The notes: generated by a model not told the origin, from the letters alone. DNA of 64,000 bases from Akkermansia sp. (GCA_017415995.1 JAFQDN010000020.1:583-64582), one strand, 5' to 3'; shown: positions 13,633 to 61,057, counted from the first letter of the stretch. A program made the numbers and translations.

Positions 13633-13689
13633 AACAAACTCAGTTTAGCACGTGCTGCGTTTTTTTGCAAGTGTTATGTTCTATTGCTC

Positions 13690-13724: not shown

Positions 13725-13764
13725 CCGGGGTTCTACATACACATTTACAGCACAAAGGGGTAAA

Positions 13765-44331: not shown

Positions 44332-44940
44332 TCAGTTTCCTGCTTCTGTTGCGGCTTGTTCCCATTTAGCAGCTTCCGCCTCGTCCATCTCCACGCCGAG
44401 ACCAAGCTTGTAGCACTCGGAAAGCTTGCGGCAGGCGTCTGCATTTCCTTGCTCCGCAGCGGCTCGGTATTGCTCCACTGCCTTCACAAAGTTGAGGGGC
44501 TCGCTGCGGGTGTTGAAGTAGCATTCCGCCAGTTTGTATTGCGCATCTGCAATTCCGGCTTCCGCAAACTCCTTGTACCACGCAATGGCTGCTTTGGCAT
44601 CCGTGGGGGCTCCCTCACCGTTGTTGTAGCGCTCCTCGGGGCCGGCTGCGGGCTCCTCCTCTTCTTCCTCTGCCTGCACGGTATCGCTCTTCTTGACCTT
44701 CATGCCGCGCGTGCCTACTGTGCTTTCATCGGCAGTTGCTTCGCTCGTTGCTGCCTCTTCAGCGGGAACAGGGGGGACAGTTGTGGTGTCAGCCGTTGTT
44801 TCGCTTGTTTCCGGGGCTGTGGCTTGCTCTTGTACTGCCGGTTCAGGCTTTGCTTCCGGGGCAGGGGCGGTTTCCTCCTGCCCGCATGAGGCAAGCAGGA
44901 TGGCGGCAGCGCATAATGCGTAGTGTTTGTTCAGTTTCAT
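44332..44940 (-). CDS. Sel1-repeat lipoprotein with a disordered TRGMKVKK-containing linker
   Basis: Lipobox MKLNKHYALCAAAILLASC, a P/T/E/A-rich linker and two Sel1 repeats (AIAWYKEFAEAGIADAQYKLAECY; AVEQYRAAAEQGNADACRKLSECY). Confidence 0.8.
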   Translation of the reverse strand: MKLNKHYALCAAAILLASCGQEETAPAPEAKPEPAVQEQATAPETSETTADTTTVPPVPAEEAATSEATADESTVGTRGMKVKKSDTVQAEEEEEEPAAGPEERYNNGEGAPTDAKAAIAWYKEFAEAGIADAQYKLAECYFNTRSEPLNFVKAVEQYRAAAEQGNADACRKLSECYKLGLGVEMDEAEAAKWEQAATEAGN

Positions 44941-44964
44941 GTGTACGGATTGGTTTAGATTAAG

Positions 44965-47900
44965 TTATTTGTACTGTTGGATCAGGGCGCGGATGCGACC
45001 ACCCGGGTCATTGCCTATGCATTGCTCCACTGTGGCACCGTTTGTAGCGCGGGCATGCACATTGGCTCCGTTGCGCAGTAGCCACTCTATTATTTCATAG
45101 TTTCCTAATCCACAGGCATTGTGCAGAGCTGTGGTGCCGTTAGATTTTCCCATTACGGAATCCAAATTGGTGTCGATGAAATAGCCGTCTGCTATTTTCG
45201 GAAGGATAATTAATAACCTTTTTTGATAGAGCTTCAGTACGCTGTCCTGATAAGTGGTGTTCTGCAGCTTTTGTATGAGTGTATGTAGCTCTTCTTCGGG
45301 CGAGTGTTTTTTTTCGTTTTTTGCAGGCATGATTTTAATGAGCTCCATGTCCCCGTTGTCCAGAGCCACGGCGGCGGGGCGCTGGGCGCCTCTGGTCAGC
45401 TCCAATACTTGGCTTTGCACACCCAGCTGCAGCTCTGCCACGCTGAGTACCTTATTGCCGTTAATGTCTGCACCCTCGGCATCATTCAGCGTCTTCATGA
45501 TGGAGTAGCTGAACACACCGTTGTTCCACTCACCGGACTCCATGGCAAACTCCGCACCGGCGGATGCCGCCACGATGTTGATGCCGCGGTATTCCGGGCT
45601 GCCGGCAAACATGTCTTCCATGTAGCGCTTGGTCTGCGTGTCCGTCAGCTTGCTCTCTGTCTTTTTGACCTTCATTCCGCGGGTATTCACCGCGCGTACA
45701 CCCGGCGGCAGTGTCACTCCGGCAGCTGCCAGCTTGTCCGCATCACTCTCACCCACGGAGCCGCTGTGGCAGGTGTCCAGCAACAGCAAGCGGTGGCGTG
45801 CTTTGGTGCTCTGCAGTGTGTCGGTCAGCTCCTTCATGGAGATACCCGTGCTGCGCACGCGAGACGGATTGAACCCTGCCGGGGCAAAGTGATACTCCAG
45901 CTTGCTGTCCAGCATGCCGTGGCCGGCAATGTAAAGGATGACGCGGTCATCTTCCTTGGCATCGGCCAAGAAAGTGCGCACCTTCTCCAAATCTGCCTTG
46001 CCGGTCATTTCCTTATCCTTCAGCAGCAGCGTGTGCTTGTTGCCGGTGGTCTTTGTCTCAACGGTGTTGATGATGTCCTGAGCGTCTTTCGCTGCAAACT
46101 GCAGGTCTAAGTCATCATCATCGTAATCCGACACGCCGATAGCTACCACATATAAATCCGATTCTTCTTTCCCCTTGTAAATGGTGCGGAAGCGCGTGGT
46201 GGCACCGGCAATGCCTGCAGAGTCCACCGGGGTGACCTCAATCCAGTTTTGCCCCACCGCCAGCGGGAGCTGCACGGTTACATGGCGCTCACCCACGGTA
46301 TCGGGGGCTTCGTCTATGCCATCTTGGGGAATGAGCACACCGTTGGCGCGTACCTCCAGCTTCACTATGTCATTTTGCGTAGCGTGCAGGCGTACCTTGA
46401 AGCTCAAATCCTTGTTTTCCGCGTACAACTTGGGCAGCTCCACCTCTGCATGGGGGAAGTTGCCGAGCTCCGGCTCCTGTGGCATGTTGTTCGGGTCGAA
46501 GCCTTGCTTTTTCAGCCAGCGTTCCGTGGTGGCTTGCAGGGCTGCAATGTCATCCGCATTGCCGCCGAGCGCCTCCAGCACCTCCGCCGGGCGGTTGCGC
46601 CACGGGGCGAGTGTTTGCAGACCAACCACACGCGCGCCGTCTCCGTAATTGAGGATGCTTTCGCAACCGGGGCTTCCGGCGTAGTGTCCATTCGGCAGCA
46701 CAATGGCGTAGCCTGCATCATTGGTGAGGTACAGGTTACCCACCTCGACCGAGCTGTTGTCCTCCTGTACGCGCACAATGCGGTAGTGTTGTTCACTGGC
46801 GGGCAGCAGCAGCAAGTTCATCTTGCCGAGCCACAGAGGCTTGAGCCCGCTCTTCACGCAATCCCATTTCTTACCCACCTGCACAGAGTTTGTCGTGAAG
46901 TTCACTTTGACCATGCGCACGCCCAAAAACTCGGACAATTCTTCGTTGCCACCGAGCAACAGGGTTGCCTCCTCCTCGCTTTCCTCCACTATTTCCAAAA
47001 GCGTGCATCCGGCCCAGTCCAATCTACCTGTTTGGCTTGCGTTCAGAAGTCGCTTCTCGCCCAAATAGAACCCTTTACCGTCTTTCAGTATGCCGATATG
47101 ACCGTCATATATATCGCCTTCGTCCGAAACCCAATGGGTGAAAAGAACGAAGGAGCCTTCGCCATGGTTAATAGCGTATACCTCGCTTACGTCGGTTTTC
47201 GTGCTCTTAAAATAGCTTTGCACGAGACCTTTGCGGGTGCTGATAGGCTCTGTTTCAGCAGCAACATCATAATAGTTGAAATCATTATACTGCGATGGAT
47301 ATGAATATTCGCTCACATTGATGGAGTTCAATATACATAAGCCTTCGTCATTTGCGTTGTACCCAGAGTATGATTTTTGTGTGAATGTAAGGCTTGCCAA
47401 ATCTATGGTGTACAGCTTTTTTTGTGCCGTATAGCAGGTAAACACGCTGCCGCTGCTTATAGTGCGAATGTGCAGTGGCTCCCATACCAGTAAGCTGTTT
47501 CCTTCGCCCGGATAAGGCCACGAAAAACTCACCCCCAAGCCATCCGCTGCACTGGCTTGCTGGGCTAGGCTGGTGCCTTTAGCGATTTTTTTCGGATCAT
47601 CGCTATTAAAGGAACCATCACTGACGTTTACTCCTGAGTATGGTAGATAATATTTCTCATAGCCAGACTTTTGTCCCGTCAGGTTGCAGGTCTGCTTTTT
47701 TACACTAAGATTTTTTGTCGTGATAACCGGTACGGTGGTTCTTCCCGGTTCTACAATGCCGGTTAGGGAATGCGGAACCATCGCATAGGTCCCATCTGCT
47801 TGCTTCATGGGATATTTGTAGCCATAGTGCGCATCGTCATTCAGTCGGAATCTCCCGATGAGATCGCCTGTTCGGCTATCCCAAAAACTATAATAATAAT

Positions 47901-48426
47901 CCCCAGAGTAATCTTCGGTTGTATAGGTGCTGACAAGCACGTCTTCGTCACCGTAGCTAATAGTTTCCGTAGCTCGCGCTGCGGTTTCACGGTAAAGAAT
48001 ACCCTTTTTGGGCTGCGTGATGACTGCTGAACTCTTGGGCTCATTTTTACGCACCCACGGGGTGTTATCTGCTTTTACCAGCACCGTGGTAGGTAGTTCG
48101 GGCGCAGCTTCTTCCGGTTCGGGTTCCTCGTCTTCTTCGGGGGCTATTTCCTCAACTTTGCCGGGCGCGTCGCTCTTGTTCTGCTTCATGTCGCGAGTTT
48201 CCCCCGCGGATTCGTCCGTATCTTCCTCACTTGGCGGATTTTCGACTGTCTCTGCGAGTGATGTCTCGTCTATCGGCGTGGTTGCCTCGGCAGGGGGGGG
48301 CGTTGTTTCTGTAACCGGTGCGACTTGTTCAGGCGCTACAGGTGTGGGCTGCGGCTCCTCCTCCTGTCCGCATGAGGTAAGCAGGATGGCAGCGATGCCT
48401 AATGCGTAATGTTTATTCAGTTTCAC
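44965..48426 (-). CDS. Lipoprotein with peptidase C14 (caspase-fold) domain and C-terminal ankyrin repeats (paralog A, 1153 aa)
   Basis: GTG start and lipobox ILLTSC. Catalytic motifs are VILYIAGHG (His codon 45919-21) and LLLDTCHSGS (Cys codon 45769-71). The C-terminus carries NGTTALHNACGLGNYEIIEWLLRNGANV Ank repeats. Confidence 0.85.
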   Translation of the reverse strand: MKLNKHYALGIAAILLTSCGQEEEPQPTPVAPEQVAPVTETTPPPAEATTPIDETSLAETVENPPSEEDTDESAGETRDMKQNKSDAPGKVEEIAPEEDEEPEPEEAAPELPTTVLVKADNTPWVRKNEPKSSAVITQPKKGILYRETAARATETISYGDEDVLVSTYTTEDYSGDYYYSFWDSRTGDLIGRFRLNDDAHYGYKYPMKQADGTYAMVPHSLTGIVEPGRTTVPVITTKNLSVKKQTCNLTGQKSGYEKYYLPYSGVNVSDGSFNSDDPKKIAKGTSLAQQASAADGLGVSFSWPYPGEGNSLLVWEPLHIRTISSGSVFTCYTAQKKLYTIDLASLTFTQKSYSGYNANDEGLCILNSINVSEYSYPSQYNDFNYYDVAAETEPISTRKGLVQSYFKSTKTDVSEVYAINHGEGSFVLFTHWVSDEGDIYDGHIGILKDGKGFYLGEKRLLNASQTGRLDWAGCTLLEIVEESEEEATLLLGGNEELSEFLGVRMVKVNFTTNSVQVGKKWDCVKSGLKPLWLGKMNLLLLPASEQHYRIVRVQEDNSSVEVGNLYLTNDAGYAIVLPNGHYAGSPGCESILNYGDGARVVGLQTLAPWRNRPAEVLEALGGNADDIAALQATTERWLKKQGFDPNNMPQEPELGNFPHAEVELPKLYAENKDLSFKVRLHATQNDIVKLEVRANGVLIPQDGIDEAPDTVGERHVTVQLPLAVGQNWIEVTPVDSAGIAGATTRFRTIYKGKEESDLYVVAIGVSDYDDDDLDLQFAAKDAQDIINTVETKTTGNKHTLLLKDKEMTGKADLEKVRTFLADAKEDDRVILYIAGHGMLDSKLEYHFAPAGFNPSRVRSTGISMKELTDTLQSTKARHRLLLLDTCHSGSVGESDADKLAAAGVTLPPGVRAVNTRGMKVKKTESKLTDTQTKRYMEDMFAGSPEYRGINIVAASAGAEFAMESGEWNNGVFSYSIMKTLNDAEGADINGNKVLSVAELQLGVQSQVLELTRGAQRPAAVALDNGDMELIKIMPAKNEKKHSPEEELHTLIQKLQNTTYQDSVLKLYQKRLLIILPKIADGYFIDTNLDSVMGKSNGTTALHNACGLGNYEIIEWLLRNGANVHARATNGATVEQCIGNDPGGRIRALIQQYK

Positions 48427-48565
48427 GTGATTTGATTAGTTGATGTTATGCTGTTTTTTCGGCCATGGAAACCGATGAGCTGCTTCTTGCCCGTTTGGGG
48501 CAAGAAGCAACGCAGCGTGTGTACTTTTTTACGTGTTTCACGGAGTCCTCTATAGGGCCTGAACA

Positions 48566-48883
48566 CTAATTGGATTTTACGGCTCCGTTATTCCTCAGGA
48601 AGTTGCGGACGTTGTTGTTCGGGTCGTTACCAACGCAATCGAGCGGAGTTTTGCCACGGTTCGTTTTGCGGTTGACTTCCGCTCCGTTCTGTACGAGCCA
48701 TACAACCAAGTCGTAATAACCCATTCCGGCGGCGTAGTGCAGGGCGGTATTGCCCTTCGTTTCTGCCGTCGTCACGTTTACATCCGCACCGTTGATAATC
48801 ATCGGCAGCAACATGGTTAAGCGCTTCTTGTAGAGCTTCATGTCTGCATTGGGTGCGCTGTAGTTCTGAATGGTGGACAGGAA
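48566..48883 (-). repeat. Conserved 318-nt 3' module (terminal Ank repeat region), copy 1
   Basis: The last 105 codons of paralog B align residue-for-residue with the last 105 codons of paralog C. A 69-nt core (48774-48842 vs 53329-53397) differs at only 2 positions by eye. Confidence 0.8.
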
Positions 48884-51800
48884 GAACTGCAGCTGGTCTC
48901 GGTTATTGTCACCGCCGAGGCTCACCGTCGTCACGTTGCCTCTATTGGTATTGGCTGCGGGCTCCGTTTGCGCCGGGGCAGGGGGAGTTTGAGGCAGAGC
49001 ATCATTTTCCCCAAGCACGGACACGCGGATGTTCTTAATCATCTCGATGCCACTGCCGACCTCTTGCTTGTAGTTTGCGACGGCGCTTGTAGCGGAGGAG
49101 AAGGTCAGATTGTATCCGGCGGGGCCCACATCGCAGGGGCAGCAGGTGTATGCAATATCTTCCATCTGTTCGTGCGTGAGGACATGTGCGTATTTTGACA
49201 ATAGCGGGCTGACTCCGTCACCGGAAGGATACTGATGAATCATCGCCGTGTTGCTGCCGGTCTTCACGTATTTGTACGCTACGGACGCGCTGACGTTGAG
49301 CTTGTTTTGCAGCAACGCGGGCAGAGATTTGATGTCCGCCGCGGAGAGCCGTTGAGGGGCTTCTTCCTCGCCATCGTACTCCGCATATACGCTGAGCGCT
49401 TGGTCGTAATAAAGCGCGAGTTTCTTGCCGTCGAGGGATGCCGGAGCATAGCCTTCGCCGGAGTCAGAACCGGTGGAGGCGGGCGCATTCTTCACAAGGC
49501 TTGCGAGCTTGCTGATGCCTCGGTAGAGGGGGGCGCCGGTATCCACACGCTCACCTTTGTTGTTGCTAATGCTCGTGCTTGCACCGTGCTTGAGGGCAAC
49601 CATGGCTCGCTCCAAATCAAACGCACTCGGACCGAGCGCCGGGTTGATGTTAACGAAGGCCTTGTGCAACATGGTGTTGCCGTTTTTGTCCTGCATGTTT
49701 ACATCTGCCCCGCCTTCCAGCAAGATATCTACCAGCTCTGCAGAGACCTCGAACAGTAGCGGGTTCCCGTATTGATCACAGGTGTTGCCCTTGTAGCCAT
49801 TTTGCACCATGGCGCGCACCACATCTGCAGCATCCTCGGCGTGACGCCAGTTGCTGACGTAGGCGGCGATGACCTCCGGCTCTACACCTTTCTCCATGGC
49901 TGCCACCCAAACGGCGGCTCCGATGGGGCTTACGCGCGGCTGCTGTTGTTCAGCATTCACGGGGTGCATGAGGTTAAAGGCCTGTTTCAGCTCGTCCAGG
50001 CGGGCGCTGTCATAGCCACGACCTTGCTTCTGCCAAGTCTCGGTTAAGTTATTGAAGTCTGCCACATAGCTTTCATTGCCGTAGTAGAAGGCGCAAATCT
50101 TGTCGAGCATGAACAGAGCCTGCTCGGCATCATCTGCCTTGGCAATGCGTTTTGCCACACCTGCCCAGTTGCCTGCCATCATCTCGCTGTCTGCGCCGGC
50201 GGCAATCAGCATGGAGCCCGTCTCCGCGGCAACGATGTTGGGGCGCTGCTTGCCTTCGGATACCTCCAGCACGCGGGCTTGTACCCCGGGCAACAGTTCC
50301 GCTACGGACAGAATGCCATCCTTGTTCATGTCTGCCGTGGTGAAGTTTTTCAGCGTGTCGATGACTGCCATGGTGAAGAAGCCGTTGGGGAATCGAGAAG
50401 TGTCTTCCATGGCTTTTTCTTCACCTGCTGCTGCTGCAATGATGTTGAGCCCTCGGTACTGCCGCCCCATGGTGAACATCTCTTCAATATAGCGCTTTGT
50501 CTGAGCCTCCGTTTTCAGGCTGACCTTTGATTTTGCCGCGCGTACTTTCATGCCGCGTGTGCCTTCCTCCGCGTCAGCCTGCCCGGCTGCTTCTGCCGCC
50601 AATTTTTCTTCACCCTGTTCTCCCAAGCTGCCGGAGTGGCAGGTGTCCATCATCAGCACACGCTCGCGCGCCGGAGCATTGCACAAGGTATCCGTGAGCA
50701 TGGTCATGGTAATGCCATTGTACTCCTCCGGCGTGAACTCCGAGGGGATGAACATGTACTCTCCGCTGGTCGGGTCTACAATGCCGTGTCCTGCAAGATA
50801 GAGCACGATACGGTCATCGATGGTGCTCTCTGCCAAGAAATCCTTGACTTTTTCCAGCACGGCAGGAGTTGCCACCTCCTCATCCGTCAGCACGAGGGTC
50901 TTTACTTCTCCTGCGCCGTATTCTCGGAAGGCTGTCGCTATATCCTCAGCGTCCTTGGCTGGGAGCTTCAGATCCCGCATGTTCTCATTGTCATACTTGT
51001 AGTCAGATACGCCGAGGCTTACCACGAACAGTCGGGAGTTTTTCTCACCTCTGCGGACAACGCGGAAATTAGTAGTATTTCTTTGGTGCCCCATGGAATC
51101 AATCGGGGTAATGGAGATGTTATTTTGTCCCATTTGCAAGGGAATGGTAATCTCGAGCCCCGTTTTGGAATCTCCGGGGTTAATGAGTAAGGTATCACTC
51201 CAAGTTTGGGGAACCAATGCTCCGTTTACTCGAACCTCACATGCCGTCGTTGCTGTTTTCTTAGTTGAGTGGATTTCGCCGGTGAAGGTAACCGTTGGGG
51301 CTGTTGTAATCAGTGGCGGCAGTGAGCTTAAACAGTTGAACGGTAGTATTGAATCATCAATCTTTTGAGGCATGGGAGGCATGGCTTCCATGTCATAACC
51401 TTGTCGGGTCAGCCAGCGACGTGTCGTTTCTTTTAATGCCGCTACTTCATCTGCATCACCGCCAATGGCTTCCAAAACTTCTCCCGGACGATTTCTCCAT
51501 TGGGCTATTACATGGGAGCTGTGGTCAACATCTGTATGGCGGATAAATGATTCACAGCCCGGGGACCCCGCATATCGCCCATCCGGCAGCACGATGGCCC
51601 AGTCCGAGCCTGCTCCGGTGCACAGTGTAAACTTTTTGGTGGTTTTTGTGCTGAAATCTTTAATCTCGTAGACATCCCAGCAATTGTCTGTACTTGGCAG
51701 GCAGAGCAGATTCTTATCCGCAACCCATACCGGGTTAGGAGTGTTCTGTGCCCATGGTGTTTTGCCCCAGTTGCCCTGCCAGCTTTGTACTAATTTTCCT

Positions 51801-53101
51801 GTTTTTGTTTTCTCATCCACATAATACAGGGCACAGAACCCCTCGCAGGCCGCTAACCAGTACGTGTGAGTATCATCCCCCGGAACTGTGTTCCAAACAC
51901 TCAAGCAACTGCCCATGCTGTCCGGATTCGGCACCTTGCCACTCAGCGTGTAGGCATTACTCGGTGTGTAGTCCAGCCCATTGATGTACGCCTCGCTTTT
52001 TCCTTCCAATTTTATAGTGCTTAAAGTGTAGCTTTGGGGATCAAACAGAAGTGGACCGGTGCGCGTCACTCCTCGCTTGGATGCCAAATTGTTGAAGACG
52101 ATATTTCCGCAATCGCTTTCGCCAAAGGAGGGAAATACCCCCATGGAGTTGCCTTTGCTTTCAATAACAGGTTGCGGCATGGGGTACAATACACCTCTTT
52201 CTACATCATAGATGCCTAAGTAGCAATTTTCTCCATCCATTGAAGCCATGCATGCCGAAAGTAGTCCGTTCCGGCTTTTCGGATAAATGAGCAGATAGGT
52301 GCCATTGTAGCTTTTCACCTCTTCTGCATCGTATTCTCCTTCAGGTAGCCCCTCTATCTCATCCAAGCTCGGTATTTTCTTGCAAACTTCTGTCGGAGTA
52401 AATTTTAAGGTGTTGAAATCAAGAGAACGTATGGTTTGCTCACCGTTTCCGCTGAAAAAGTGTACAAATCCTTCCAATTCTGGTACTCGCTGCAAGCCCT
52501 TGGTGTCAGATAAAAGAATATTTAAGTCGGGTGCTTCTTGCGGTGCAGGTAATTGTGCATATTTTGGCTCTTTGAATGGTTTTTTCCTTCCTTCTTCAAC
52601 AGCTAAGTAATCACTTGTTGATTTGAAGCGATAGCAGGAGAGCGTGGGTTCTCTCAAATCAAATGCCACCATGCCTCCGTTCTCTCCGTTTCGATCCGGT
52701 TCTATGCAAATACCAAAACAATAGTCTTTTCGAGTAACCCCGGGTGTGCATAATCCGCAGCCTTTGATCATGACGGAGGTGACGTAATAATAATCCGAGC
52801 TCCGCCAAACGTGCAGAGCATAAACTGCATCCATGTAATCACCTGTTATTTTCTCACAAGTGACTATAAAAGCATCATCTGAATATATTAAGTGGGTCGA
52901 CTCCCCCTTACGCGTCAGGAAAGTGTAGCCAACATTTGACCCCTGTAGAAGATCAAATCTCTCGGCAACAAGACCTCCACTTTTACTTTTGTTGAGTTTC
53001 TCTATCGCCTCTTGTTGGGTGAGGTTTACAGTTCCTTCCTGTGCTTGTACCATCGCAGTGGCGCACAGAAAACTGAGAGCGAATAAGTGACTTGTTTTCA
53101 T
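48566..53101 (-). CDS. Exported peptidase C14 (caspase-fold) / ankyrin-repeat protein (paralog B, 1511 aa)
   Basis: Signal peptide MKTSHLFALSFLCATAMVQA. Catalytic motifs are VLYLAGHG (His 50786-88) and MMDTCHSGS (Cys 50639-41). Ank repeats occur mid-protein and at the C-terminus. Confidence 0.85.
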   Translation of the reverse strand: MKTSHLFALSFLCATAMVQAQEGTVNLTQQEAIEKLNKSKSGGLVAERFDLLQGSNVGYTFLTRKGESTHLIYSDDAFIVTCEKITGDYMDAVYALHVWRSSDYYYVTSVMIKGCGLCTPGVTRKDYCFGICIEPDRNGENGGMVAFDLREPTLSCYRFKSTSDYLAVEEGRKKPFKEPKYAQLPAPQEAPDLNILLSDTKGLQRVPELEGFVHFFSGNGEQTIRSLDFNTLKFTPTEVCKKIPSLDEIEGLPEGEYDAEEVKSYNGTYLLIYPKSRNGLLSACMASMDGENCYLGIYDVERGVLYPMPQPVIESKGNSMGVFPSFGESDCGNIVFNNLASKRGVTRTGPLLFDPQSYTLSTIKLEGKSEAYINGLDYTPSNAYTLSGKVPNPDSMGSCLSVWNTVPGDDTHTYWLAACEGFCALYYVDEKTKTGKLVQSWQGNWGKTPWAQNTPNPVWVADKNLLCLPSTDNCWDVYEIKDFSTKTTKKFTLCTGAGSDWAIVLPDGRYAGSPGCESFIRHTDVDHSSHVIAQWRNRPGEVLEAIGGDADEVAALKETTRRWLTRQGYDMEAMPPMPQKIDDSILPFNCLSSLPPLITTAPTVTFTGEIHSTKKTATTACEVRVNGALVPQTWSDTLLINPGDSKTGLEITIPLQMGQNNISITPIDSMGHQRNTTNFRVVRRGEKNSRLFVVSLGVSDYKYDNENMRDLKLPAKDAEDIATAFREYGAGEVKTLVLTDEEVATPAVLEKVKDFLAESTIDDRIVLYLAGHGIVDPTSGEYMFIPSEFTPEEYNGITMTMLTDTLCNAPARERVLMMDTCHSGSLGEQGEEKLAAEAAGQADAEEGTRGMKVRAAKSKVSLKTEAQTKRYIEEMFTMGRQYRGLNIIAAAAGEEKAMEDTSRFPNGFFTMAVIDTLKNFTTADMNKDGILSVAELLPGVQARVLEVSEGKQRPNIVAAETGSMLIAAGADSEMMAGNWAGVAKRIAKADDAEQALFMLDKICAFYYGNESYVADFNNLTETWQKQGRGYDSARLDELKQAFNLMHPVNAEQQQPRVSPIGAAVWVAAMEKGVEPEVIAAYVSNWRHAEDAADVVRAMVQNGYKGNTCDQYGNPLLFEVSAELVDILLEGGADVNMQDKNGNTMLHKAFVNINPALGPSAFDLERAMVALKHGASTSISNNKGERVDTGAPLYRGISKLASLVKNAPASTGSDSGEGYAPASLDGKKLALYYDQALSVYAEYDGEEEAPQRLSAADIKSLPALLQNKLNVSASVAYKYVKTGSNTAMIHQYPSGDGVSPLLSKYAHVLTHEQMEDIAYTCCPCDVGPAGYNLTFSSATSAVANYKQEVGSGIEMIKNIRVSVLGENDALPQTPPAPAQTEPAANTNRGNVTTVSLGGDNNRDQLQFFLSTIQNYSAPNADMKLYKKRLTMLLPMIINGADVNVTTAETKGNTALHYAAGMGYYDLVVWLVQNGAEVNRKTNRGKTPLDCVGNDPNNNVRNFLRNNGAVKSN

Positions 53102-53120
53102 ACGTTGTGAGTTGTGTTGT

Positions 53121-53438
53121 TTAGTTAGATTTTACAGCTCCTCGGTTCTTGAGGAAGTTGCGGATGCGGTTGCCGGGGTCATTGCCAACGCAGTCAAGTG
53201 GTGTTTTTCCGCGGTTAGTTTTGCGGTTGATTTCTGCGCCGTTGTTCACCAGCCATTCCACCAAATCGTAATACCCCATGCCTGCTGCATAGTGTAGGGC
53301 GGTATTACCCTTGGTTTCAGTCGTAGTTACGTTTACATCCGCACCGTTGATAATCATCGGCAGCAGCATGGTCAAGCGCTTCTTGTAGAGCTTCATCGTC
53401 TCATTGGACGGGCTGAAGTTCGTGATGGTGTTCAGGAA
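53121..53438 (-). repeat. Conserved 318-nt 3' module (terminal Ank repeat region), copy 2
   Basis: See copy 1. Confidence 0.8.
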
Positions 53439-56400
53439 TGTCTGCGCCTCTGCATGGCTGCCGGTGGGCACCCGCACAGCTCCCGGATTGTTGCGAATGT
53501 ACTCTGCACGCTGTTGCAGATAGCGGTAATTGCGATCGCCCGGTTCCTGCGGGCGCTTGCCCTCATTGTTACGGATATTCGGATTAGCCCCCGCCAGCAA
53601 CAATGCATCAATGACGGGAACCGTGTCTTCATCAGGAATGCACATTATGCGGTGCAATGCTGTATTACCTTGTTCATCTTGAGCGTTAACATCAACTCCC
53701 TCGCTGAGGATTAATTGAAGACAACGCAAATTATCTTGAATCTCTGCTCGTGTTCCTCTACCGGCGCATTTGTGTAACAGTTCAGTTCCTTTTGCTCTGA
53801 TGTCCGCACCATGCCGCTGCAGGAAGGTCAGATAGCCGTAACCGAAGCGTATGGACAGACACTCGGTTGCTGTTTTTTCCGAAGCTCCGAACTCAAACGC
53901 CTTCTTCATGTTGGCAAAGTTTAGGTCGCTGATTCCCGCTACTTCTTTCAAAGCCAAATCGGCATCTACTCCCGCTTGTAACAGTTTGAACAATATGTCC
54001 GTGGGCATGTCGTATTTTGCCAAGGCGAGCAAAACCTCAGTTGCATCCTCAGCAGAGTATTCACCGCGAGACCATTGTCTTACTTTCTCCCAGTCTGCCG
54101 TCTTTTGATCTGCTGCCGTGGCGTAATCAGCGATTCTTTGTTTCACCTCACTCAACCAGGGAATGGATGGGGTAACAAGGCTCATGGGATTATCCTCCGC
54201 CGTTACAACGGTAGGCTTCTGATTTCCCTTGGTGTACTTTTGCACCAATTGCAGAACGTGGTTTTGAAGCTCATCAACAGTAAGCGTGGAATCCGCGTTT
54301 TTATCTGCCTCGTCTATGTTTTCCAAGGTTTGCATAATGCAGGCGGTGAACACGCCGTTATTCCACTCCTCTCCTTCTTGTGCAAGCTCGGCACCGGCAG
54401 CCCCGGCGATGATGTTGATGCCTCGGTATGTCGTACCGGTAGAGAACATGTCTTCTATGTATCTCTTGTTTTGTCTCTCGCTCTTGAGCATTGTGCTGGT
54501 GCCGCGGAGCTTCATGCCTCGGGTTCGTTTGTTGCGGGAGGTTGCCGTGTGCGTGTGCGCATTTTTTGCCAGTTCTTCCTCTCCGGCTTCTCCCAAGGTG
54601 CCGCTGTGGCAGGTGTCCAGCAGTAGCAGCCCTTTTCTTGCCGGGGCGGATTTGATGGCATCCACCAGAGCATCCATGGAAATGCCGGTTTCTTCCAGTC
54701 GGTAGGTATCGAAGCCCGCGGTTGCGTATCGGTAATCCAAGTTCTCATCCAAGAATCCGTGTCCTGCCACATAAAGGATGACTTGGTCATTCATCCTGCT
54801 GTCAGCAAAGAAATCCTTCACTTTTTGCAGCACGGTGACATCTGCCACCTCTTTATCCGTCAGAACAAGAGTGTGAACTTTACTCTTGGCATGTTTGGCG
54901 AAACTGTCGGTAATATCTTGTGCGTCTTTTGCTGCATAGCGCAGGTCGCCCAAGTCCTCATTATCATTCTCGTAATCGGACACGCCCAGCGCTACTACGT
55001 ACAATTCCGAAGGTTGGGTAACGTCCTCATGGATAACTCGGAATTTCGTTGTGTCGCCCGCCACTCCCATAGAGTCTACAGGGCGAATCTCCAACCAGTT
55101 TTGCCCTACAGCCAGCGGAACTTGCACGGTAACCGTTTTTTGCTCACCGGGGCGTACCAGCAAGGTGTCATCCCATTCCTGCGGAATGCGCTTGCCTTCA
55201 GCATAAACTTCTACCGAGGTCATTGCTTTGAGGGGGGCTGCCTCAAGCTGTACGGTGAGGGTCTGTATTTGTTCGTTGGTATACAACTCCGGTAATTCCA
55301 CCTTGGCTACCGGCAAGGAGGCAAGAGACGGTGCTTCCGTGGAGGCGCTTTCGGTCATATGGAGCTTGTGCAGCCAGCGTTTTGTTGTTTCTCGCAGGGC
55401 TGTAATGTCATCCTCATTGCCTCCAAGTGCTTCCAATACCTCTGCGGGACGGTTTTTCCACGGAGCAAGAGCGCTCAGACCTACGGATTTGTTGCCTTCA
55501 CGGAAAGCAAGGAAGTTTTCGCAGCCCGGTGATCCGGCATAGAGACCATTCGGCAGAACAATGGCGTAGCCTCTGTTGGGATCCACATAGAAATCCGCAA
55601 TTTTATCCAAATTGCCGGATTCATCCACTTTCATGATGTCGTAGCAAACATCGCTGATGGGTTTAAGAAACCACTGTTTTTCCGGTAACCATACGGGACA
55701 GAGAAACTTTTGGGGAGATTCGAAGTGATGTCGAACCTTGTATTCAAAAGTTTGAGTGTTTAAATCCAGAATAAAGGTTTGTGCTTTACCATCGCCCCAT
55801 TCAAGAACGAGAACAACTTCCGCTATAAAGCCGTTGTCTGCGAATCGTAATGTGTGTTGGCGAACGTACGGAGCAAACTCTTCCTGTACGGATTCTATCA
55901 GGTTTCCGTCAAATTCACTTTTTCGAGGGATAACGCAGCTGTTGTAGTCGCGTAATTTGGCTGAGTGTCCTTTTCTCAAGTCTTCCCAATCATACAAATA
56001 CACGCGGTCTTCATTTGTTAATATTCCGATGATGCTGCTCGGTGCGCTGGTGCCTTCATCATAATGACAGTATATTAAAGCAAAAGGTACGTAATCATTG
56101 CTGCCTTCTCCTCTGGCTATTGATTCGGAAGCGTCATAGTCCTCCGGGTTAAAGAAGTCACATGTGCCTCCGGCGCAGGATACGGGATTTGGCACCATTG
56201 CCGTTTTTAAGCGACTAATCAGAACATCATTGGCTTCCTTTTGTTCTTGCTCCGTTGGTGGAGCTATGCGTTGCAATTCCAGTGTGTCAAAGTTGACACA
56301 GTAGGTAAAGCTCTTTTTTGCTGCTTTGTTAGAATCTCTGCCGAAAGTGTGAGTGAGGCAGACGCTGCTACCCTCACTGTAGGCTGAAATGTATGCATCC

Positions 56401-57332
56401 TTTTGTTCGCAATCTATGGGATCGGTACTCAGTTCATTACCGAGTATGCTGAGCCCGGCGGTTGTTTTCTTGAACCAAGGGGCGGTTAGTTTACCTTCCA
56501 TGACATTGAATGCCCCCGGTTTCAGGTTAAGACTACGGTAAATATCACCTGTTTTGGTGTTGCTGAAGGCTCGAAGGTAGTTTTTTGCTTCCCATTCAAT
56601 AGCCATTAACCGCTGGAATTGCCCCTTTCCCGGGAGCCATACATACGAACCGAAATAGTTGCCGGACCAGTCATAAGCGCATGCTTCTGCCGGAATATAT
56701 TGGACGTAATAGGCTAAATCTCCGTTCTTCGTAGTAGCACATAATGTGAATGAATCACTCCCGGCAAAATTAGGTAAAGAAATGCTGCTGATTTCACGTG
56801 CTGTGCGAGGATCCCAGCAGGTCAGATACGAGGAAAATGCGTCCATTTCTCCTGCCGTACGCGTTAACACTCCTTTGTCGTGCTCAAAAAATACCTGGCC
56901 TCCGTTATATCTCAAATGGTCTCGGAAGTAGATGCCTTCTTCTTTGTTTTGTGGAATATATGCTCTGGAAAAAATTTTGACGTCTTCAGGGTTTTCCAGA
57001 ATCTCCAGCAGTTTCTTCTTACACTCTGAAATTGTTCTGCATTTTGGTTCGTTAATGTCAGCTCGGAAGTTCTTGTTGTATTGCTTGTGCGTGGGGTATT
57101 TCGAGAAAAGGAAGTACTCGCCCTTGAGGATTTCCAAGTAATCCTCGGGGGAGAGCTTGTTGCGCAGCTGAAGGTTGATGTCTGCAAACTCTTCTTTTAC
57201 CCATGCTGGGAGGTCTACATCTTCATTGTTGTACAGAGGTTGTGCGTAGGCGTCATCATAATTGCTGCCGTATACCGGGAGCACTGCCGCTGCGCACAGG
57301 AAGCTCAGATTCAAAATCTGATGGGTTTTCAT
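53121..57332 (-). CDS. Exported peptidase C14 (caspase-fold) / ankyrin-repeat protein (paralog C, ~1403 aa)
   Basis: Signal peptide from MKTHQILNLSFLCAAAVLPVYG (start 57332; the ORF extends to 57368). Catalytic motifs are ILYVAGHG (His 54759-61) and LLLDTCHSGT (Cys 54609-11). Ank repeats include GNTALHRIM... and GNTALHYAAGMGYYDLVEWLV. Confidence 0.85.
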   Translation of the reverse strand: MKTHQILNLSFLCAAAVLPVYGSNYDDAYAQPLYNNEDVDLPAWVKEEFADINLQLRNKLSPEDYLEILKGEYFLFSKYPTHKQYNKNFRADINEPKCRTISECKKKLLEILENPEDVKIFSRAYIPQNKEEGIYFRDHLRYNGGQVFFEHDKGVLTRTAGEMDAFSSYLTCWDPRTAREISSISLPNFAGSDSFTLCATTKNGDLAYYVQYIPAEACAYDWSGNYFGSYVWLPGKGQFQRLMAIEWEAKNYLRAFSNTKTGDIYRSLNLKPGAFNVMEGKLTAPWFKKTTAGLSILGNELSTDPIDCEQKDAYISAYSEGSSVCLTHTFGRDSNKAAKKSFTYCVNFDTLELQRIAPPTEQEQKEANDVLISRLKTAMVPNPVSCAGGTCDFFNPEDYDASESIARGEGSNDYVPFALIYCHYDEGTSAPSSIIGILTNEDRVYLYDWEDLRKGHSAKLRDYNSCVIPRKSEFDGNLIESVQEEFAPYVRQHTLRFADNGFIAEVVLVLEWGDGKAQTFILDLNTQTFEYKVRHHFESPQKFLCPVWLPEKQWFLKPISDVCYDIMKVDESGNLDKIADFYVDPNRGYAIVLPNGLYAGSPGCENFLAFREGNKSVGLSALAPWKNRPAEVLEALGGNEDDITALRETTKRWLHKLHMTESASTEAPSLASLPVAKVELPELYTNEQIQTLTVQLEAAPLKAMTSVEVYAEGKRIPQEWDDTLLVRPGEQKTVTVQVPLAVGQNWLEIRPVDSMGVAGDTTKFRVIHEDVTQPSELYVVALGVSDYENDNEDLGDLRYAAKDAQDITDSFAKHAKSKVHTLVLTDKEVADVTVLQKVKDFFADSRMNDQVILYVAGHGFLDENLDYRYATAGFDTYRLEETGISMDALVDAIKSAPARKGLLLLDTCHSGTLGEAGEEELAKNAHTHTATSRNKRTRGMKLRGTSTMLKSERQNKRYIEDMFSTGTTYRGINIIAGAAGAELAQEGEEWNNGVFTACIMQTLENIDEADKNADSTLTVDELQNHVLQLVQKYTKGNQKPTVVTAEDNPMSLVTPSIPWLSEVKQRIADYATAADQKTADWEKVRQWSRGEYSAEDATEVLLALAKYDMPTDILFKLLQAGVDADLALKEVAGISDLNFANMKKAFEFGASEKTATECLSIRFGYGYLTFLQRHGADIRAKGTELLHKCAGRGTRAEIQDNLRCLQLILSEGVDVNAQDEQGNTALHRIMCIPDEDTVPVIDALLLAGANPNIRNNEGKRPQEPGDRNYRYLQQRAEYIRNNPGAVRVPTGSHAEAQTFLNTITNFSPSNETMKLYKKRLTMLLPMIINGADVNVTTTETKGNTALHYAAGMGYYDLVEWLVNNGAEINRKTNRGKTPLDCVGNDPGNRIRNFLKNRGAVKSN

Positions 57333-57428
57333 GTTCAGAATGTTATTAAGAGGAAAATCCTCCTCCATTCTTCGGTAGGAACGTCAATGCAAGAATGGAG
57401 GAGGGAAAGTGTGTTAAATGGGGGATGC

Positions 57429-58496
57429 TCACTCCGCAGGTGCGGTGGAGACGATGATGTGTTTCTCGCTCCAGAGGGTCTTCTTGGACACGTCCGCAGC
57501 ACTGGCTTTCTTGACCTTCTTGACAACCATGCCGCGGGTCATGACCCCGTAGGGCTCATCTTCCGTGGCGGCGGAGGCCATGCCTTTGATTTCCTTGTGA
57601 AGTGCGCTTGCGTTGGTGCAAGCAATGACTTGAACAACGTCGGAACCGAAGGGCTCAGCGATTTCAATTTCAAAACCTGCTTTGAGAGCGCCGGGTACCT
57701 CCACCCACTTGTTGGCGGGGATGAGGGTGTCCTTATGCCACTTATTGGGGAAGAGTACCACGGAGGTGCCATCGCTCTGGTGGCAGATGACGGCAATGTG
57801 GCAGGCTTGTGGGGCGCGCACGCGGAAGGAGATGGTATCCCCCTCTTTGTAGAAGCGCTCACCGTCTGCCGTGCGCAGGTCGATATCGAAGTCCTGTTTA
57901 ATGTTGAGCAGGTTGGGGTTGGCTACCTCTTCAATGCCTTCCATGGAGGCCTCGGCATTCTGAGGCTCAATCATTTCTGCTGCTTCTGCAGGCTTTTTGT
58001 CCGGCCAAACCTGACCGGTAACTGCCTTGATGGGCCAGCTGACCTTGCTCTTGGTTACACTGCCGTCCTTGAGCCAAGCAATCTCCGTGTAAAGCGTTAC
58101 GGTTTTGCCGTCTGTGACGAATCTGCCGCGCACAATGCCTTCCACTCCTTCAATGGCAATTTTTTCCACCGTGGTGCCCGGTTCTACCAAGTCAGAGGCC
58201 TGGAACTCTCCCTCCAGTTCCAAATCTCCGAGGTTGGAGCGGGTGATGACGCGCACCTTGCCGGTTTGGGGCAAGGCGATTTCCAGCTCTTCGCGGATAA
58301 CGGCGGAGAGCGGGGACATCATGGGGGTGTCGGAGTACACAAAGTTGCCTACTCCCAGGCGGATGGGAGTCGTGGAATCCGGAATTTGTTTGGCAAGAGT
58401 TGTTGCCAGTTTCTCAAACGGATCCTGCGTAGGAGCTGCCGTTACGATGGGGGCTGCTATCAGCGCTGCGAGTGAAAGTATACGTGTGAGTTTCAT
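57429..58496 (-). CDS. Exported CsgG/FlgO/LpoB-like domain + DUF4384 protein
   Basis: Signal peptide. The N-domain is IRLGVGNFVYSD...LSAVIREELEIAL...VRVITRSNLGDLELE...IVRGRF. The C-domain is ISFRVRAPQACHIAVICHQSDGTSVVLFPN...FGSDVVQVIAC, typical of DUF4384. The tail contains TRGMVVKKVKK. Confidence 0.75.
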   Translation of the reverse strand: MKLTRILSLAALIAAPIVTAAPTQDPFEKLATTLAKQIPDSTTPIRLGVGNFVYSDTPMMSPLSAVIREELEIALPQTGKVRVITRSNLGDLELEGEFQASDLVEPGTTVEKIAIEGVEGIVRGRFVTDGKTVTLYTEIAWLKDGSVTKSKVSWPIKAVTGQVWPDKKPAEAAEMIEPQNAEASMEGIEEVANPNLLNIKQDFDIDLRTADGERFYKEGDTISFRVRAPQACHIAVICHQSDGTSVVLFPNKWHKDTLIPANKWVEVPGALKAGFEIEIAEPFGSDVVQVIACTNASALHKEIKGMASAATEDEPYGVMTRGMVVKKVKKASAADVSKKTLWSEKHIIVSTAPAE

Positions 58497-58511: not shown

Positions 58512-58751
58512 TTAGCTTACAATAGTTTCTACAGTCTTTACGGTGGTGCTGTTTCTGATGGTTTCCTGTGTGGCTTTTCCAGCCGCGTTTTTAGGGGCTT
58601 TTTTGATTGCCTTTTTGGGGGAGATAATGCCGGCGGGCGTGCCTTGGGGCGCGGCCGGAGCCGTGGGAACGGGGGCAGGGGTGTTGCTTGAGGAGCATGC
58701 TGTAAGAGCCGCTGCTGCCATAGCTATTGCGGTGATGTGTGTAAGTTTCAT
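58512..58751 (-). CDS. Small P/A/K-rich lipoprotein (79 aa)
   Basis: Lipobox AAALTAC. Low-complexity but in an operonic position with 15-20 nt gaps on both sides. Confidence 0.6.
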   Translation of the reverse strand: MKLTHITAIAMAAAALTACSSSNTPAPVPTAPAAPQGTPAGIISPKKAIKKAPKNAAGKATQETIRNSTTVKTVETIVS

Positions 58752-58771: not shown

Positions 58772-59701
58772 TTAGTTGCTCGTGGTAGACTCCAGTGCAG
58801 AGCTGATGATGAGGTCAATCTCCGCCGAGGTGGAGGCAGTTTCTGCCTTGTCTGCTCCCGGGGTGGGAGGAGCACCGGCGCCGGTTTCTTCCAGTTCCAG
58901 CTGTTTGGCGCTTTCGTCGGTTTTGATAACCTTCCCCTTGGCTGAGATGGTCTTGGTGATGACTTTGACCAACGGACCGAGCTTCAGGCTGACGGTTACT
59001 TCGGCTGAGTTGTCATCCAGGTAGCTGATGCCGGTAATCTCAGCGCCCTTAATGGCGTTGCTGAAACAGGCTTTAAGCTCATCACTTTCCACCACAAAGT
59101 CGCGTACGGTGGAATCCGCCGTTATTTCCACGCCACAGGCGCGTTCGGCTAATCGACGGTAGGCATCCAGCTCTGCTGCGCGCTTGGCCATGACTCGGGC
59201 GTGTCCATCACTTCCCGGGATGGCTGCGTTACCCAAGGCGTCTATCTCTTCCGTTACGTATTCTTGGGCAACTGTGGTTTTTGCGCTTCCCAATTTTTGA
59301 GTAACGGTTTCCAACAGGGTGCGCACCTTGACGGCGCGGATGACTTCCACTCGCCCGTCTTCGTGGTAAACGGGTTTTCCTACGGTTTTTACGCCTTTAA
59401 GGGTGGCGGCAAGAACCGTCCTAACAGAGTCGTCCGCTGCTGCAAGGTCTTTTACGGTGGTGTTCCCATTGATGGAAACTCCCATAATTCTTTCCGCCAG
59501 TGCACGTGTGGCATCCAATTCCGCAGCACGTACATATTGCAGTCGCTTGGCCGTGGGTACCTTTTTCCAGATTTCCGGCAGGTCGGCTGTTGCGTCTTTT
59601 TTGATGGTTACTTTCGGGGCTGCTTGTGCTTGCATCGTAAACGGTACACCGATTCCGGCAACCCCAAGGAGTATAGCAATTGATTTGTTCATGTTGTACA
59701 A
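58772..59701 (-). CDS. Exported protein with two LPP20-like domains
   Basis: Two copies of the LPP20 signature (YVRAAELDATRALAERIMGVSINGNTTVKD and AKRAAELDAYRRLAERACGVEITADSTVRD). Signal peptide; alternative start at 59692. Confidence 0.75.
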   Translation of the reverse strand: MYNMNKSIAILLGVAGIGVPFTMQAQAAPKVTIKKDATADLPEIWKKVPTAKRLQYVRAAELDATRALAERIMGVSINGNTTVKDLAAADDSVRTVLAATLKGVKTVGKPVYHEDGRVEVIRAVKVRTLLETVTQKLGSAKTTVAQEYVTEEIDALGNAAIPGSDGHARVMAKRAAELDAYRRLAERACGVEITADSTVRDFVVESDELKACFSNAIKGAEITGISYLDDNSAEVTVSLKLGPLVKVITKTISAKGKVIKTDESAKQLELEETGAGAPPTPGADKAETASTSAEIDLIISSALESTTSN

Positions 59702-59725: not shown

Positions 59726-61057
59726 TTATTCCGCTCCTATCTTTTTCTTGAAAATCTTCAGGAGCAGAGCACCGATGCCTCCACAGGCCGACACGGTGAC
59801 GCCGGCGATGATTTCCCACATGAAACTACCGCCTTGCTCTTGAGCCGGAGCCGCTGCCGCCGTTGCTTCCCGCTCCTTAGTTATGCTTCCCTTGCGGAAG
59901 GAAAGGTAGCGCTTCTCGGAACGATCTAAACTGAATTCCGGCAGGATGTCGGAGATTACCTTGGCAAGCTCTGTTGAGTTGATACGGGATTCGCACTCGA
60001 TGACGGAGATTGCCGCGGCGTCAATGCTGCGTACCCATACGGCGCCGATGGCCGTTTGCTGCTCCAGACCGCTCTTCAGTTTTTCGGAACCCGGTAAGTC
60101 CAATCCCACAAACTCCAGCTTGATGGTAGCACCTAAGTCTGTTTCCGCTGCCCAGTGGGTAAAGATGCTGCGGATGAGTTGCCAGCCTGCATCGGAGTCT
60201 GCCTTGCGCTTATTGCCTTCCATTAACTGTCGTACAGCCTCACGGGCTGCTGCGGTGTCGGATGATACATTGCGGATGAGGATGTCTTGGGCAGGGGAGT
60301 TCATGGTGAGTACCACGTTGCCCGTGGCGGCATCACGCACGGTGACATCCAAGGCAATGGAGTATTTTTTGCCCGGTTTACTCCCGTAGAAGGACTGTGT
60401 CCCCGCTGCGCTGCCTACGATTTTGCCTTCTATCACATAGTCGCATGCGGATACGATGCCTTGGCTACGTGCCTCGCCTTCCGTCTTGCGCCCGAGAGTT
60501 TCAGCTCGCTTAGCCAGCATGCCTCCCTGTCCTTGGGCATTATTGAGGTCCACAACTCGCAGTCCGCATTTGGTGGCGGTGTTTCGCAGCCAGTCTGTGG
60601 CCAAGGTTCCGTTTGTCACGCCTTCTATCTGCTCGTCTATTTGGATGGCAAGTCTCGGCGCCTCGTGTTCCCTTGCCATCATCTGGAAGGTCATGGTGTC
60701 ATCGGCGGTTAGGGCTTTGTCGCTTACATCTGCCTTTATCTTTACGGTATAAAAACCATCTTCTCCCATCCCGGTGCTTACGACTTCATACTTTTTAATG
60801 TATCCTCGTGCCTTGCTGAATGTCTTGTCAGAGCTTATTTCAAAGTTTTCCATCTGCGTTTCGCTCACCAAGTCCACCCCCGCACCTTCGCGTACGGCTT
60901 CTCTTAGTGCGTCGGATAACGCTTGCGAACGCGCCGCAGGTCCATCTCCTGCTGCCTTGCCTTCAGTTTCTACCTCTACCGCATATGCGCTACCGACTAC
61001 CAGCACGGCGCATGCGGATGTTTTCCATATGGAGGAGAGTGCTTTTCGTATGTTCAT
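59726..61057 (-). CDS. Exported LPP20-like + CsgG/FlgO-like domain protein with a C-terminal TM anchor
   Basis: Signal peptide and N-terminal RSQALSDALREAVREGAGVDLVSETQ (LPP20-like). The middle contains PRLAIQI...ACDYVIEGKIVG...YSIALDVTVRDAATGNVV (CsgG/FlgO-like). The C-terminal helix is WEIIAGVTVSACGGIGALLLKIF followed by KKK. Confidence 0.65.
   Translation of the reverse strand: MNIRKALSSIWKTSACAVLVVGSAYAVEVETEGKAAGDGPAARSQALSDALREAVREGAGVDLVSETQMENFEISSDKTFSKARGYIKKYEVVSTGMGEDGFYTVKIKADVSDKALTADDTMTFQMMAREHEAPRLAIQIDEQIEGVTNGTLATDWLRNTATKCGLRVVDLNNAQGQGGMLAKRAETLGRKTEGEARSQGIVSACDYVIEGKIVGSAAGTQSFYGSKPGKKYSIALDVTVRDAATGNVVLTMNSPAQDILIRNVSSDTAAAREAVRQLMEGNKRKADSDAGWQLIRSIFTHWAAETDLGATIKLEFVGLDLPGSEKLKSGLEQQTAIGAVWVRSIDAAAISVIECESRINSTELAKVISDILPEFSLDRSEKRYLSFRKGSITKEREATAAAAPAQEQGGSFMWEIIAGVTVSACGGIGALLLKIFKKKIGAE

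Follow-up and report, generated by a model that had tools for sequence, protein, structure and literature searches.

A conserved R-G-M motif shared by caspase-like proteases and their operon partners in an Akkermansia envelope system: a candidate recognition and self-processing site

In a 64,000-nucleotide stretch of DNA from Akkermansia sp. (GCA_017415995.1 JAFQDN010000020.1:583-64582), hereafter the window, we analysed a short peptide motif with the core R-G-M-x-V-K, which occurs there in the form T-R-G-M-[KV]-[VL]-[KR] in three metacaspase-like C14 proteases (paralogs A, B and C) and in two non-protease partners from the same operon, a DUF4384 protein and a Sel1-repeat lipoprotein. Our data bear out in part the interpretation of a first-pass annotation of this DNA: the motif is non-random, selectively maintained and common to the proteases and their partners. 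The explanation that we put first, tentatively and with somewhat more doubt than conviction, is that the motif may be a protease recognition and self-processing site shared with substrates, as suggested by sequence conservation, structure prediction and analogy with type II metacaspases. All copies in the window lie on the minus strand and inside translated open reading frames (ORFs), at exactly the coordinates first given for them (five TRGM and one TRDM):

44689..44712, minus strand: TRGMKVKK in the low-complexity linker of the Sel1 lipoprotein (TRGM at 44701-44712)
45661..45684, minus strand: TRGMKVKK in paralog A, in the loop that follows the catalytic Cys, domain residues 168-175 (TRGM at 45673-45684)
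50540..50560, minus strand: TRGMKVR in paralog B, in the loop that follows the catalytic Cys (TRGM at 50549-50560)
54504..54524, minus strand: TRGMKLR in paralog C, in the loop that follows the catalytic Cys (TRGM at 54513-54524)
57516..57539, minus strand: TRGMVVKK in the DUF4384 protein, residues 320-327 (TRGM at 57528-57539)
48175..48198, minus strand: TRDMKQNK, a degenerate form that aligns as a homologue of the Sel1 copy, in paralog A's N-terminal linker (TRDM at 48187-48198)

Six-frame translation of the 64 kb yields five matches to RGM.[VIL][KR], against 0.35 expected, every one of them at a site listed above. TRGM occurs at two further places, 28016 and 32515, in both cases without the basic tail and within short frames free of stop codons (93 and 83 residues). 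One might explain such recurrence by a short piece of DNA having been spread recently from one gene to its neighbours, by copying or gene conversion and without any selected function, given that an 18-nucleotide string is nearly identical between the Sel1 and paralog A copies (CTTGACCTTCATGCCGCG at 44692-44709 and, with one mismatch, at 45664-45681; the string had been noticed before, at positions that we correct downwards by one base) and that conversion-like tracts exist in the operon, with 81% identity over 300 nucleotides at the 3' ends of paralogs B and C and 79% over 98 nucleotides at the 5' ends of the Sel1 and paralog A genes. Identity between the Sel1 and paralog A DNA nevertheless collapses from 21/24 in the core to 21/48 in the flanks, and because the likeness is confined to the motif it points to the same peptide and codon bias, not to a recent DNA copy. 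The motif is also conserved at the protein level in orthologues of 45-80% identity and in distant taxa. Cross-species conservation and flank divergence largely refute the copying explanation, which we find hardly credible.

Two of the three proteases are recognised directly by the Pfam Peptidase_C14 model (41.4 bits for A and 48.2 bits for B, cut-off 21.4). Paralog C has no Pfam C14 match at E<=0.01; its domain is 47% identical to that of A, aligns throughout and keeps the His and Cys. The catalytic contexts are YIAGHG and LLDTCHSG in A, YLAGHG and MMDTCHSG in B, and YVAGHG and LLDTCHSG in C. In an alignment of 67 C14 sequences, C139 and D137 (in LDTCHSG) are invariant, and H89 and D34 (in AAKDA) are nearly so. 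Profile alignment with solved metacaspases places the AAKDA Asp on the metacaspase NDA Asp and the LDTCHSG Asp on the DSCHSG Asp, the latter being the position of the S1-pocket residue Asp137 of AtMC4; for AtMC4 Asp352, on the p10 side, no confidently aligned counterpart was found.

An AlphaFold2 model of the paralog A domain, built with 67 homologues, reached a predicted local distance difference test score (pLDDT) of 86.5 and a predicted template modelling score (pTM) of 0.84. Confidence is low across residues 141-200, and the only internal segment below a pLDDT of 50 is residues 167-176, NTRGMKVKKT, which hold the motif. In the three proteases the motif lies 27-29 residues after the catalytic Cys, closer than the 30-45 of the first-pass annotation, whose placement of it in the intersubunit linker is sound. 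Searching with the model, Foldseek returned AtMC9 and AtMC4 as best matches, followed by GSU0716, type I metacaspases and MALT1 (E 1e-8 to 6e-11 for AtMC9, GSU0716, Yca1, TbMCA2 and MALT1), as expected of a caspase-hemoglobinase fold. As in type II metacaspases, the domain is predicted to have a flexible linker after the Cys that carries a conserved basic residue. The R-G pair recurs in the post-Cys loop of many of the 67 aligned homologues (for example RRG, TRGV and SRGF): the loop reads RGM[KSA]V in close relatives and SRG[FM]K in those further away, and relatives with a short loop have RRG or TRGV about 10 residues after the Cys. By analogy, a self-processing role of the C14 loop would have strong precedent.

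The copy in the DUF4384 protein is of a different kind. The protein scores 66.5 bits against the Pfam DUF4384 model (PF14326; cut-off 27), and among the matches listed for its 129 homologues, 113 of 120 carry RGM about 35 residues before the C-terminus. An alignment of 59 sequences, down to 36% identity, shows no variation at R321 or G322 and at least 90% conservation at M323 and K326. Although the motif had been described as part of a C-terminal tail, it is not predicted to be disordered: AlphaFold2 (pLDDT 81.6, pTM 0.80) predicts a strand at residues 317-320 (GVMT), an amphipathic helix at 321-334 (RGMVVKKVKKASAA) and a terminal strand at 342-352, with the motif at the strand-helix junction and a pLDDT of 85-87 over this block. 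Taken as short linear motifs in the strict sense, namely conserved islands in intrinsically disordered sequence that recur in non-homologous proteins, the copies differ: those of the Sel1 linker and the C14 loop have this character, and the DUF4384 copy, being predicted to be ordered, does not.

The Pfam model covers only an 81-residue core and leaves about 60 conserved C-terminal residues outside it. When we searched 1.84 billion representative sequences with residues 200-355 (phmmer), 942 proteins were found at E<1e-3. Among the architectures are proteins that start with a C14, TIR, putative zinc-ribbon or Ser/Thr kinase domain (FGE-sulfatase and LysM accompany some of the kinases) and end in the DUF4384-plus-tail unit, which in such fusions usually follows a hydrophobic stretch, an apparent membrane segment. 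Of 79 representatives that retain the terminal W...strand, 61 have [ST]-R-G-[MLIVFQ]; the Met position varies among these wider relatives (M, L, I, V, F or Q). The N-terminal half of the modelled protein resembles LpoB, GNA1162, CsgG and TolB-N, best the C-terminal domain of LpoB (Foldseek E 8e-5), and a DUF4384 profile found no match among PDB sequences. We considered that the tail helix and strand merely complete the LpoB-like fold, and ruled this out: the tail is kept where such a domain is impossible, as in P0344, which has about 60 residues between a putative membrane segment and DUF4384 and thus no room for it. Since it is kept in such proteins, the tail is part of the DUF4384 module itself. 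The idea that the motif was simply copied from the protease into its neighbours is hence to be revised, the DUF4384 copy being the oldest and most invariant and belonging to this module; on sequence grounds it is probably the ancestral copy, and if anything the proteases would imitate DUF4384.

Within the DUF4384 core, C232, H233, C238, H239, Q240, D242 and C293 are invariant or near-invariant; C238, H239 and the LFPN residues L248, F249, P250 and N251 are invariant in the alignment. This set of residues (within 232-293) could form a metal site, disulfides or a catalytic centre, and from its architectures the DUF4384-plus-tail unit looks like an extracytoplasmic sensor or receiver module. In the kinase P0333, the tail copy of the motif is accompanied by another, GVTDRGMRVVEKP, in the juxtamembrane linker (residues ~395-410), and the C-terminal 50 residues of P0357 hold two tail copies, TTRGMPFSIV and VTRGMKVVPRDD. 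In the related locus L002, a 102-residue ORF at 14425-14733 (plus strand), between a TPR-CHAT gene and a KilA-N gene, encodes the end of a DUF4384 module and its tail (…PFQVLTRGMAVKGIDKSV…WSQDSIVVSTLPKP) and may be either a gene fragment or a free-standing tail peptide.

The Sel1 copy shows conservation where little else is conserved. TRGMKVKK is exact in five Sel1 orthologues of 80-45% identity, at positions from residue 72 to residue 165, within P/E/T/A-rich linkers that are hypervariable; 13 other Sel1 orthologues, with short linkers, have no motif. This is the behaviour of a lineage-specific, selected linear motif, apparently gained in one lineage. The 5' ends of the Sel1 and paralog A genes are homologous (75% identity over the alignment; 79% over 98 nucleotides at 44873-44970 and 48359-48456, including ~30 nucleotides upstream of the start codon), and a cassette of signal peptide, linker and motif has been duplicated between them. 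Because these ends are paralogous, the TRDM copy, whose site had been correctly identified as degenerate, is also a decayed sister of the Sel1 copy; the orthologous caspase of L006, from the Akkermansia metagenome-assembled genome (MAG) 37, has an intact KTRGMKVKKSD at that place. L006 lacks a Sel1 gene and bears this copy in the N-terminal linker of the caspase, in L008 the copy is on Sel1, and in the window the Sel1 copy is intact and the caspase N-terminal copy decayed; L007 and L009 have neither form. The sequences of the three operons with a copy suggest that one lipid-tethered copy per operon is retained. Sel1 repeats are fused to C14 or CHAT in several relatives (P0006, P0001 and the proteases of L004, L011 and L015) and Ank repeats in others; by this comparison the Sel1 lipoprotein, which stands alone in the window, resembles an accessory protease module that has become detached.

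A contig search with paralog A returned two Akkermansia loci only, and orthologous operons were gathered via contigs encoding homologues. In all, 11 related loci around DUF4384 homologues were surveyed, some from Akkermansia-like genomes and others from metagenomic bacteria that are far more distant. Each of the 11 has a gene for a C14 and/or CHAT protease within 10 kb. Besides the DUF4384 gene and one or both kinds of protease (C14; TPR-CHAT or Sel1-CHAT), the clusters contain an LPP20-like gene, in most cases a FlgT_N-like gene and often a small ORF. The motif is kept in the orthologous operons, where its absence had been expected to count against a function, and the protease copies read:

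L001, CHAT protease: GERGMKVT
L001, C14 protease: ATRGMKVKE
L002, CHAT protease: GDRGMSVKK
L002, C14 protease, N-terminal linker: PTRGMRVKG
L004, CHAT protease: GGRGMHIV
L008, C14 protease: KTRGMKVRK
L009, C14 protease: QNRGMKVRK
L010, CHAT protease: GERGMQVV
L010, C14 protease: GTRGMNVKA
L011, CHAT protease: GTRGMSVV
L013, CHAT protease: KERGLSVKP
L014, C14 protease: MARGMKVKA
L015, CHAT protease (10216-13776, plus strand; residue ~900): GVRGMAVKG

RGMxV is thus present in the long-form C14 proteins and in five of six TPR/Sel1-CHAT proteins, the sixth having RGL; in the short-type C14 and C14-FGE-sulfatase proteins of L012 and L013 it is weak or absent. The motif follows the Cys in long-form C14 proteins; in CHAT proteins an insertion between the catalytic residues holds it, 12-15 residues beyond the His and ~85 ahead of the Cys. 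As these positions are non-homologous, the motif has been placed beside an active site independently, at least twice. The pattern RGM.[VI] occurs 30 times in 116,044 residues of the related loci (ORFs of at least 150 residues), where a rough composition estimate gives ~1-2. No CHAT domain was found by Pfam in the proteases of the window; CHAT occurs only in the related non-Akkermansia clusters.

These numbers bear on the explanation that the two conservation patterns are unrelated, the DUF4384 RGM being a structural helix cap and the C14 R-G an independent family feature, with no common reader. The DUF4384 copy is indeed ordered and kept in architectures without an obvious protease, the Met is variable in wider DUF4384 relatives, and the residue after it differs systematically between the two classes. 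In co-operonic proteins specifically, the same six-residue core nevertheless turns up in four unrelated settings (the DUF4384 module, disordered lipoprotein linkers and the loops of C14 and of CHAT proteases), the matches far exceed expectation both in the window and, by the rough estimate, in the related loci, and the Sel1 copy is a perfectly conserved island within its linker; we regard an unrelated origin as clearly improbable.

If the motif is a shared recognition and processing site, the system would work as follows. It would comprise the FlgT_N-like protein, the LPP20-like lipoprotein, a small lipoprotein, the DUF4384 protein, the metacaspase-like C14 proteases and Sel1/Ank accessories. 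In cis, the loop copy after the catalytic Cys would act as a self-processing or self-inhibiting site, as in type II metacaspases, with the scissile bond most likely after the conserved Arg; cleavage there is favoured because of that Arg and the aligned aspartates. In trans, the same element would mark the partners, on the DUF4384 C-terminal extension (the putative ancestral copy) and on the lipid-anchored linker of Sel1, or in some relatives of the caspase itself, this linker copy being a lineage-specific addition; a cut in such a tethered linker would release the protein from the membrane. The sequence, position and conservation of the motif, its predicted order or disorder, the fold, the conserved aspartates and the gene neighbourhood are shown here; binding and cutting of the motif by the proteases, and the choice of bond, are inferred from them.

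Several observations weigh against this reading. The DUF4384 copy is predicted to lie in an ordered element, which is half of the structural outcome (buried and ordered) that had been named in advance as telling against cleavage, and its post-Met residue is hydrophobic where the proteases and Sel1 have a polar or basic one; the DUF4384 copy and the protease/Sel1 copies may therefore not be read alike, and a purely structural cause may lie behind the R/G invariance in DUF4384, whose modules keep the motif when fused to kinases or TIR domains. RGM is absent from some close C14 homologues (P0008, P0009 and P0012) and from short-type C14 proteins (L013). Other copies lie near protein termini (at the C-terminus of P0436, and in C14-FGE protein b of L012, five residues past the predicted signal cleavage site), so that cleavage there would have little effect.

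The copies at termini also speak for the chief alternative, which we judge possible but rather unlikely, namely that the motif is a docking mimic that is not cleaved: the strand-RGM-helix would be the packing element of the DUF4384 module itself, copied onto flexible loops or tethers of the proteases and Sel1. Its targets would be the DUF4384 module or the Ank, Sel1 and TPR solenoids fused to long-form proteases, and the outcome a complex assembled on the FlgT/LPP20/LpoB-like scaffold, or a gated active site. The conserved stretch, G-V-x(1-3)-T-R-G-M-x-V-K-K, is long for a protease site, the predicted order in DUF4384, a strand followed by an amphipathic helix, fits this arrangement, and peptide-binding repeats (Ank, Sel1 or TPR) are present on every long-form C14 or CHAT protease of these clusters. 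The CHAT loop of L015 is identical to the heptapeptide of its same-locus DUF4384 copy (RGMAVKG), and the C14 copy of L002, RGMRVKG, matches the VKG of its DUF4384 counterpart, RGMAVKG. Other loci show a poorer match. Whether the pair of residues that follows RGMxV covaries between protease and DUF4384 was also considered: L002, L015 and Akkermansia suggest that it does, and since L001, L010 and L011 are inconsistent with this, it was rejected as evidence. A precedent for docking is Craspase (type III-E CRISPR; Csx29/Csx30), which recognises Csx30 mainly through docking of its C-terminal domain and not through cut-site residues (PMC10028731, PMC11106740). Against docking, the protease copies adjoin catalytic residues (after the Cys in C14, after the His in CHAT) and so point to the active site and not to a remote scaffold, the aligned aspartates and conserved Arg suit a P1 residue, autoprocessing in the post-Cys loop is the rule in the closest solved relatives, and no binding pocket was identified.

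A bolder extension of the processing-site reading, which we consider unlikely, is that DUF4384 is a dedicated protease-receiver module whose C-terminal R-G-hydrophobic strand-helix is a switch read or cut by extracytoplasmic C14/CHAT proteases, which themselves keep a decoy copy in the loop by the active site. If this were true, the presence of the module on transmembrane Ser/Thr kinases, TIR and zinc-ribbon proteins would imply a widespread bacterial envelope signalling cascade through caspase-like proteolysis, comparable in logic to protease-activated receptors.

The minus strand of the window from 61057 to 44332 consists of eight co-directional, tightly packed genes, whose closest named relatives are in Akkermansia MAGs:

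59726..61057, minus strand: FlgT_N-like exported protein, 443 residues, first operon gene (Pfam FlgT_N, E 1.1e-6)
58772..59701, minus strand: LPP20-like lipoprotein, 309 residues (Pfam LPP20, E 1.2e-10), found beside DUF4384 genes in related loci
58512..58751, minus strand: Lys-rich small lipoprotein, 79 residues, C-terminal end ...VETIVS, an ORF between the LPP20-like and DUF4384 genes
57429..58496, minus strand: DUF4384 protein, 355 residues, with signal peptide, LpoB/CsgG-like domain, DUF4384 beta-sandwich and conserved C-terminal extension (Pfam DUF4384, E 2e-18)
53121..57368, minus strand: paralog C, 1415 residues, with signal peptide, N-terminal domains, C14 (by alignment) and Ank repeats (Pfam Ank)
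48566..53101, minus strand: paralog B, 1511 residues, with signal peptide, N-terminal domains, C14 (Peptidase_C14, E 1.4e-12) and Ank repeats
44965..48426, minus strand: paralog A, 1153 residues, with lipoprotein signal, acidic linker, N-terminal domains, C14 (Peptidase_C14, E 1.7e-10) and Ank repeat
44332..44940, minus strand: Sel1-repeat lipoprotein, 202 residues (Pfam Sel1, E 1e-12; lipobox LLASCG)

Because the window sequences that we read all start with a signal peptide or lipobox, the operon products act outside the cytoplasm. Counterparts of the small lipoprotein, of 84 and 96 residues, occupy the same place in L008 and L009 and end in ...EMMVS and ...ETIVS. Pfam detected the FlgT_N-like gene in L001, L004, L008, L009 and L010, confirmed in L001 and faint or weak in most; L006 has a 446-residue ORF at this position, a candidate counterpart. 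The C14 domains of B and C are each only 46-47% identical in protein sequence to that of A, unlike the shared 3' ends of B and C, whose last 300 nucleotides (48567-48866 and 53122-53421), encoding the terminal Ank module, are the tract of 81% DNA identity noted above; either gene conversion or a strongly constrained C-terminal module may account for the contrast. Upstream of the LPP20-like gene in L001, L002, L010, L011 and L015 lie divergent genes for a LytTR response regulator and a MASE1 histidine kinase, adjoined by a LysM protein in L001, L002, L011 and L015, an arrangement that suggests two-component control of the system outside Akkermansia.

To our knowledge, bacterial caspase homologues are abundant and almost none has a known substrate, and we know of no function for DUF4384. 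A protease-loop motif shared with operon partners offers a concrete hypothesis about the bond that would be cut, the proteins concerned and the effect of the cut, and makes of two families labelled 'function unknown' a protease-partner pair open to direct experiment. Conserved both in Akkermansia-like genomes and in many environmental bacteria, the system links the uncharacterised FlgT_N-like, LPP20-like and LpoB-like/DUF4384 proteins to clan-CD proteases in one envelope system.

Several known systems invite comparison. In separase and caspases, a loop of the clan-CD protease copies the sequence recognised in substrates or in a pseudosubstrate inhibitor; these enzymes differ in belonging to other families, in being eukaryotic and in using other motifs (ExxR; DxxD). 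Type II metacaspases are closer: Foldseek matched no structure better to the paralog A domain than AtMC4 and AtMC9 (E 6e-11 to 1e-8), and they too are single chains with a post-Cys linker bearing a conserved basic residue and an Asp two positions before the Cys. In AtMC4, Lys225 of the linker sits in an S1 pocket that includes Asp137, and the first cut is made there (bioRxiv 10.1101/2020.03.09.983940). The window proteases differ in being bacterial, exported or lipid-anchored and 1150-1500 residues long, with large N-terminal domains and Ank repeats, in having a linker of ~60 residues with no folded 'linker domain', and in that the motif is also present in non-protease partners. The orthocaspase MaOC1 of Microcystis aeruginosa is an Arg/Lys-specific prokaryotic C14 protease that self-activates by a cut after Arg219, and DUF4384 is among the accessory domains of orthocaspases (PMC7475262); MaOC1 differs in belonging to another C14 subfamily, in being cytoplasmic and in that no motif shared with operon partners is described for it.

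Craspase likewise combines a clan-CD protease with solenoid repeats and cuts an operon-encoded partner, some Csx30 C-terminal domains are DUF4384, and the related non-Akkermansia clusters use RGM-bearing TPR-CHAT proteases. The D. ishimotonii Csx30 is cut between AVGM and KKDK (bioRxiv 10.1101/2022.08.17.504292), which resembles the G-M-K of the window and would make a cut after the Met possible. Craspase cut sites vary between orthologues, lying between A and S, L and D, or M and K (PMC11106740), and this lack of conservation weakens the case for a Met cut. The likeness, striking at first sight, is only a lead, Craspase sites being non-conserved and docking-dependent and the window motif strongly conserved. 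The window differs from Craspase in having C14 and Ank instead of CHAT and in encoding exported proteins, and it showed no sign of CRISPR association, although no scan for CRISPR arrays or gRAMP was made. Our literature search found no description of the motif in publications mentioning DUF4384. The logic of a clan-CD protease with a substrate motif in its own loop is thus known from metacaspases, caspases and separase, and what is new here is the specific motif, its sharing with DUF4384 across C14/CHAT envelope systems, and the extended, motif-bearing DUF4384 module.

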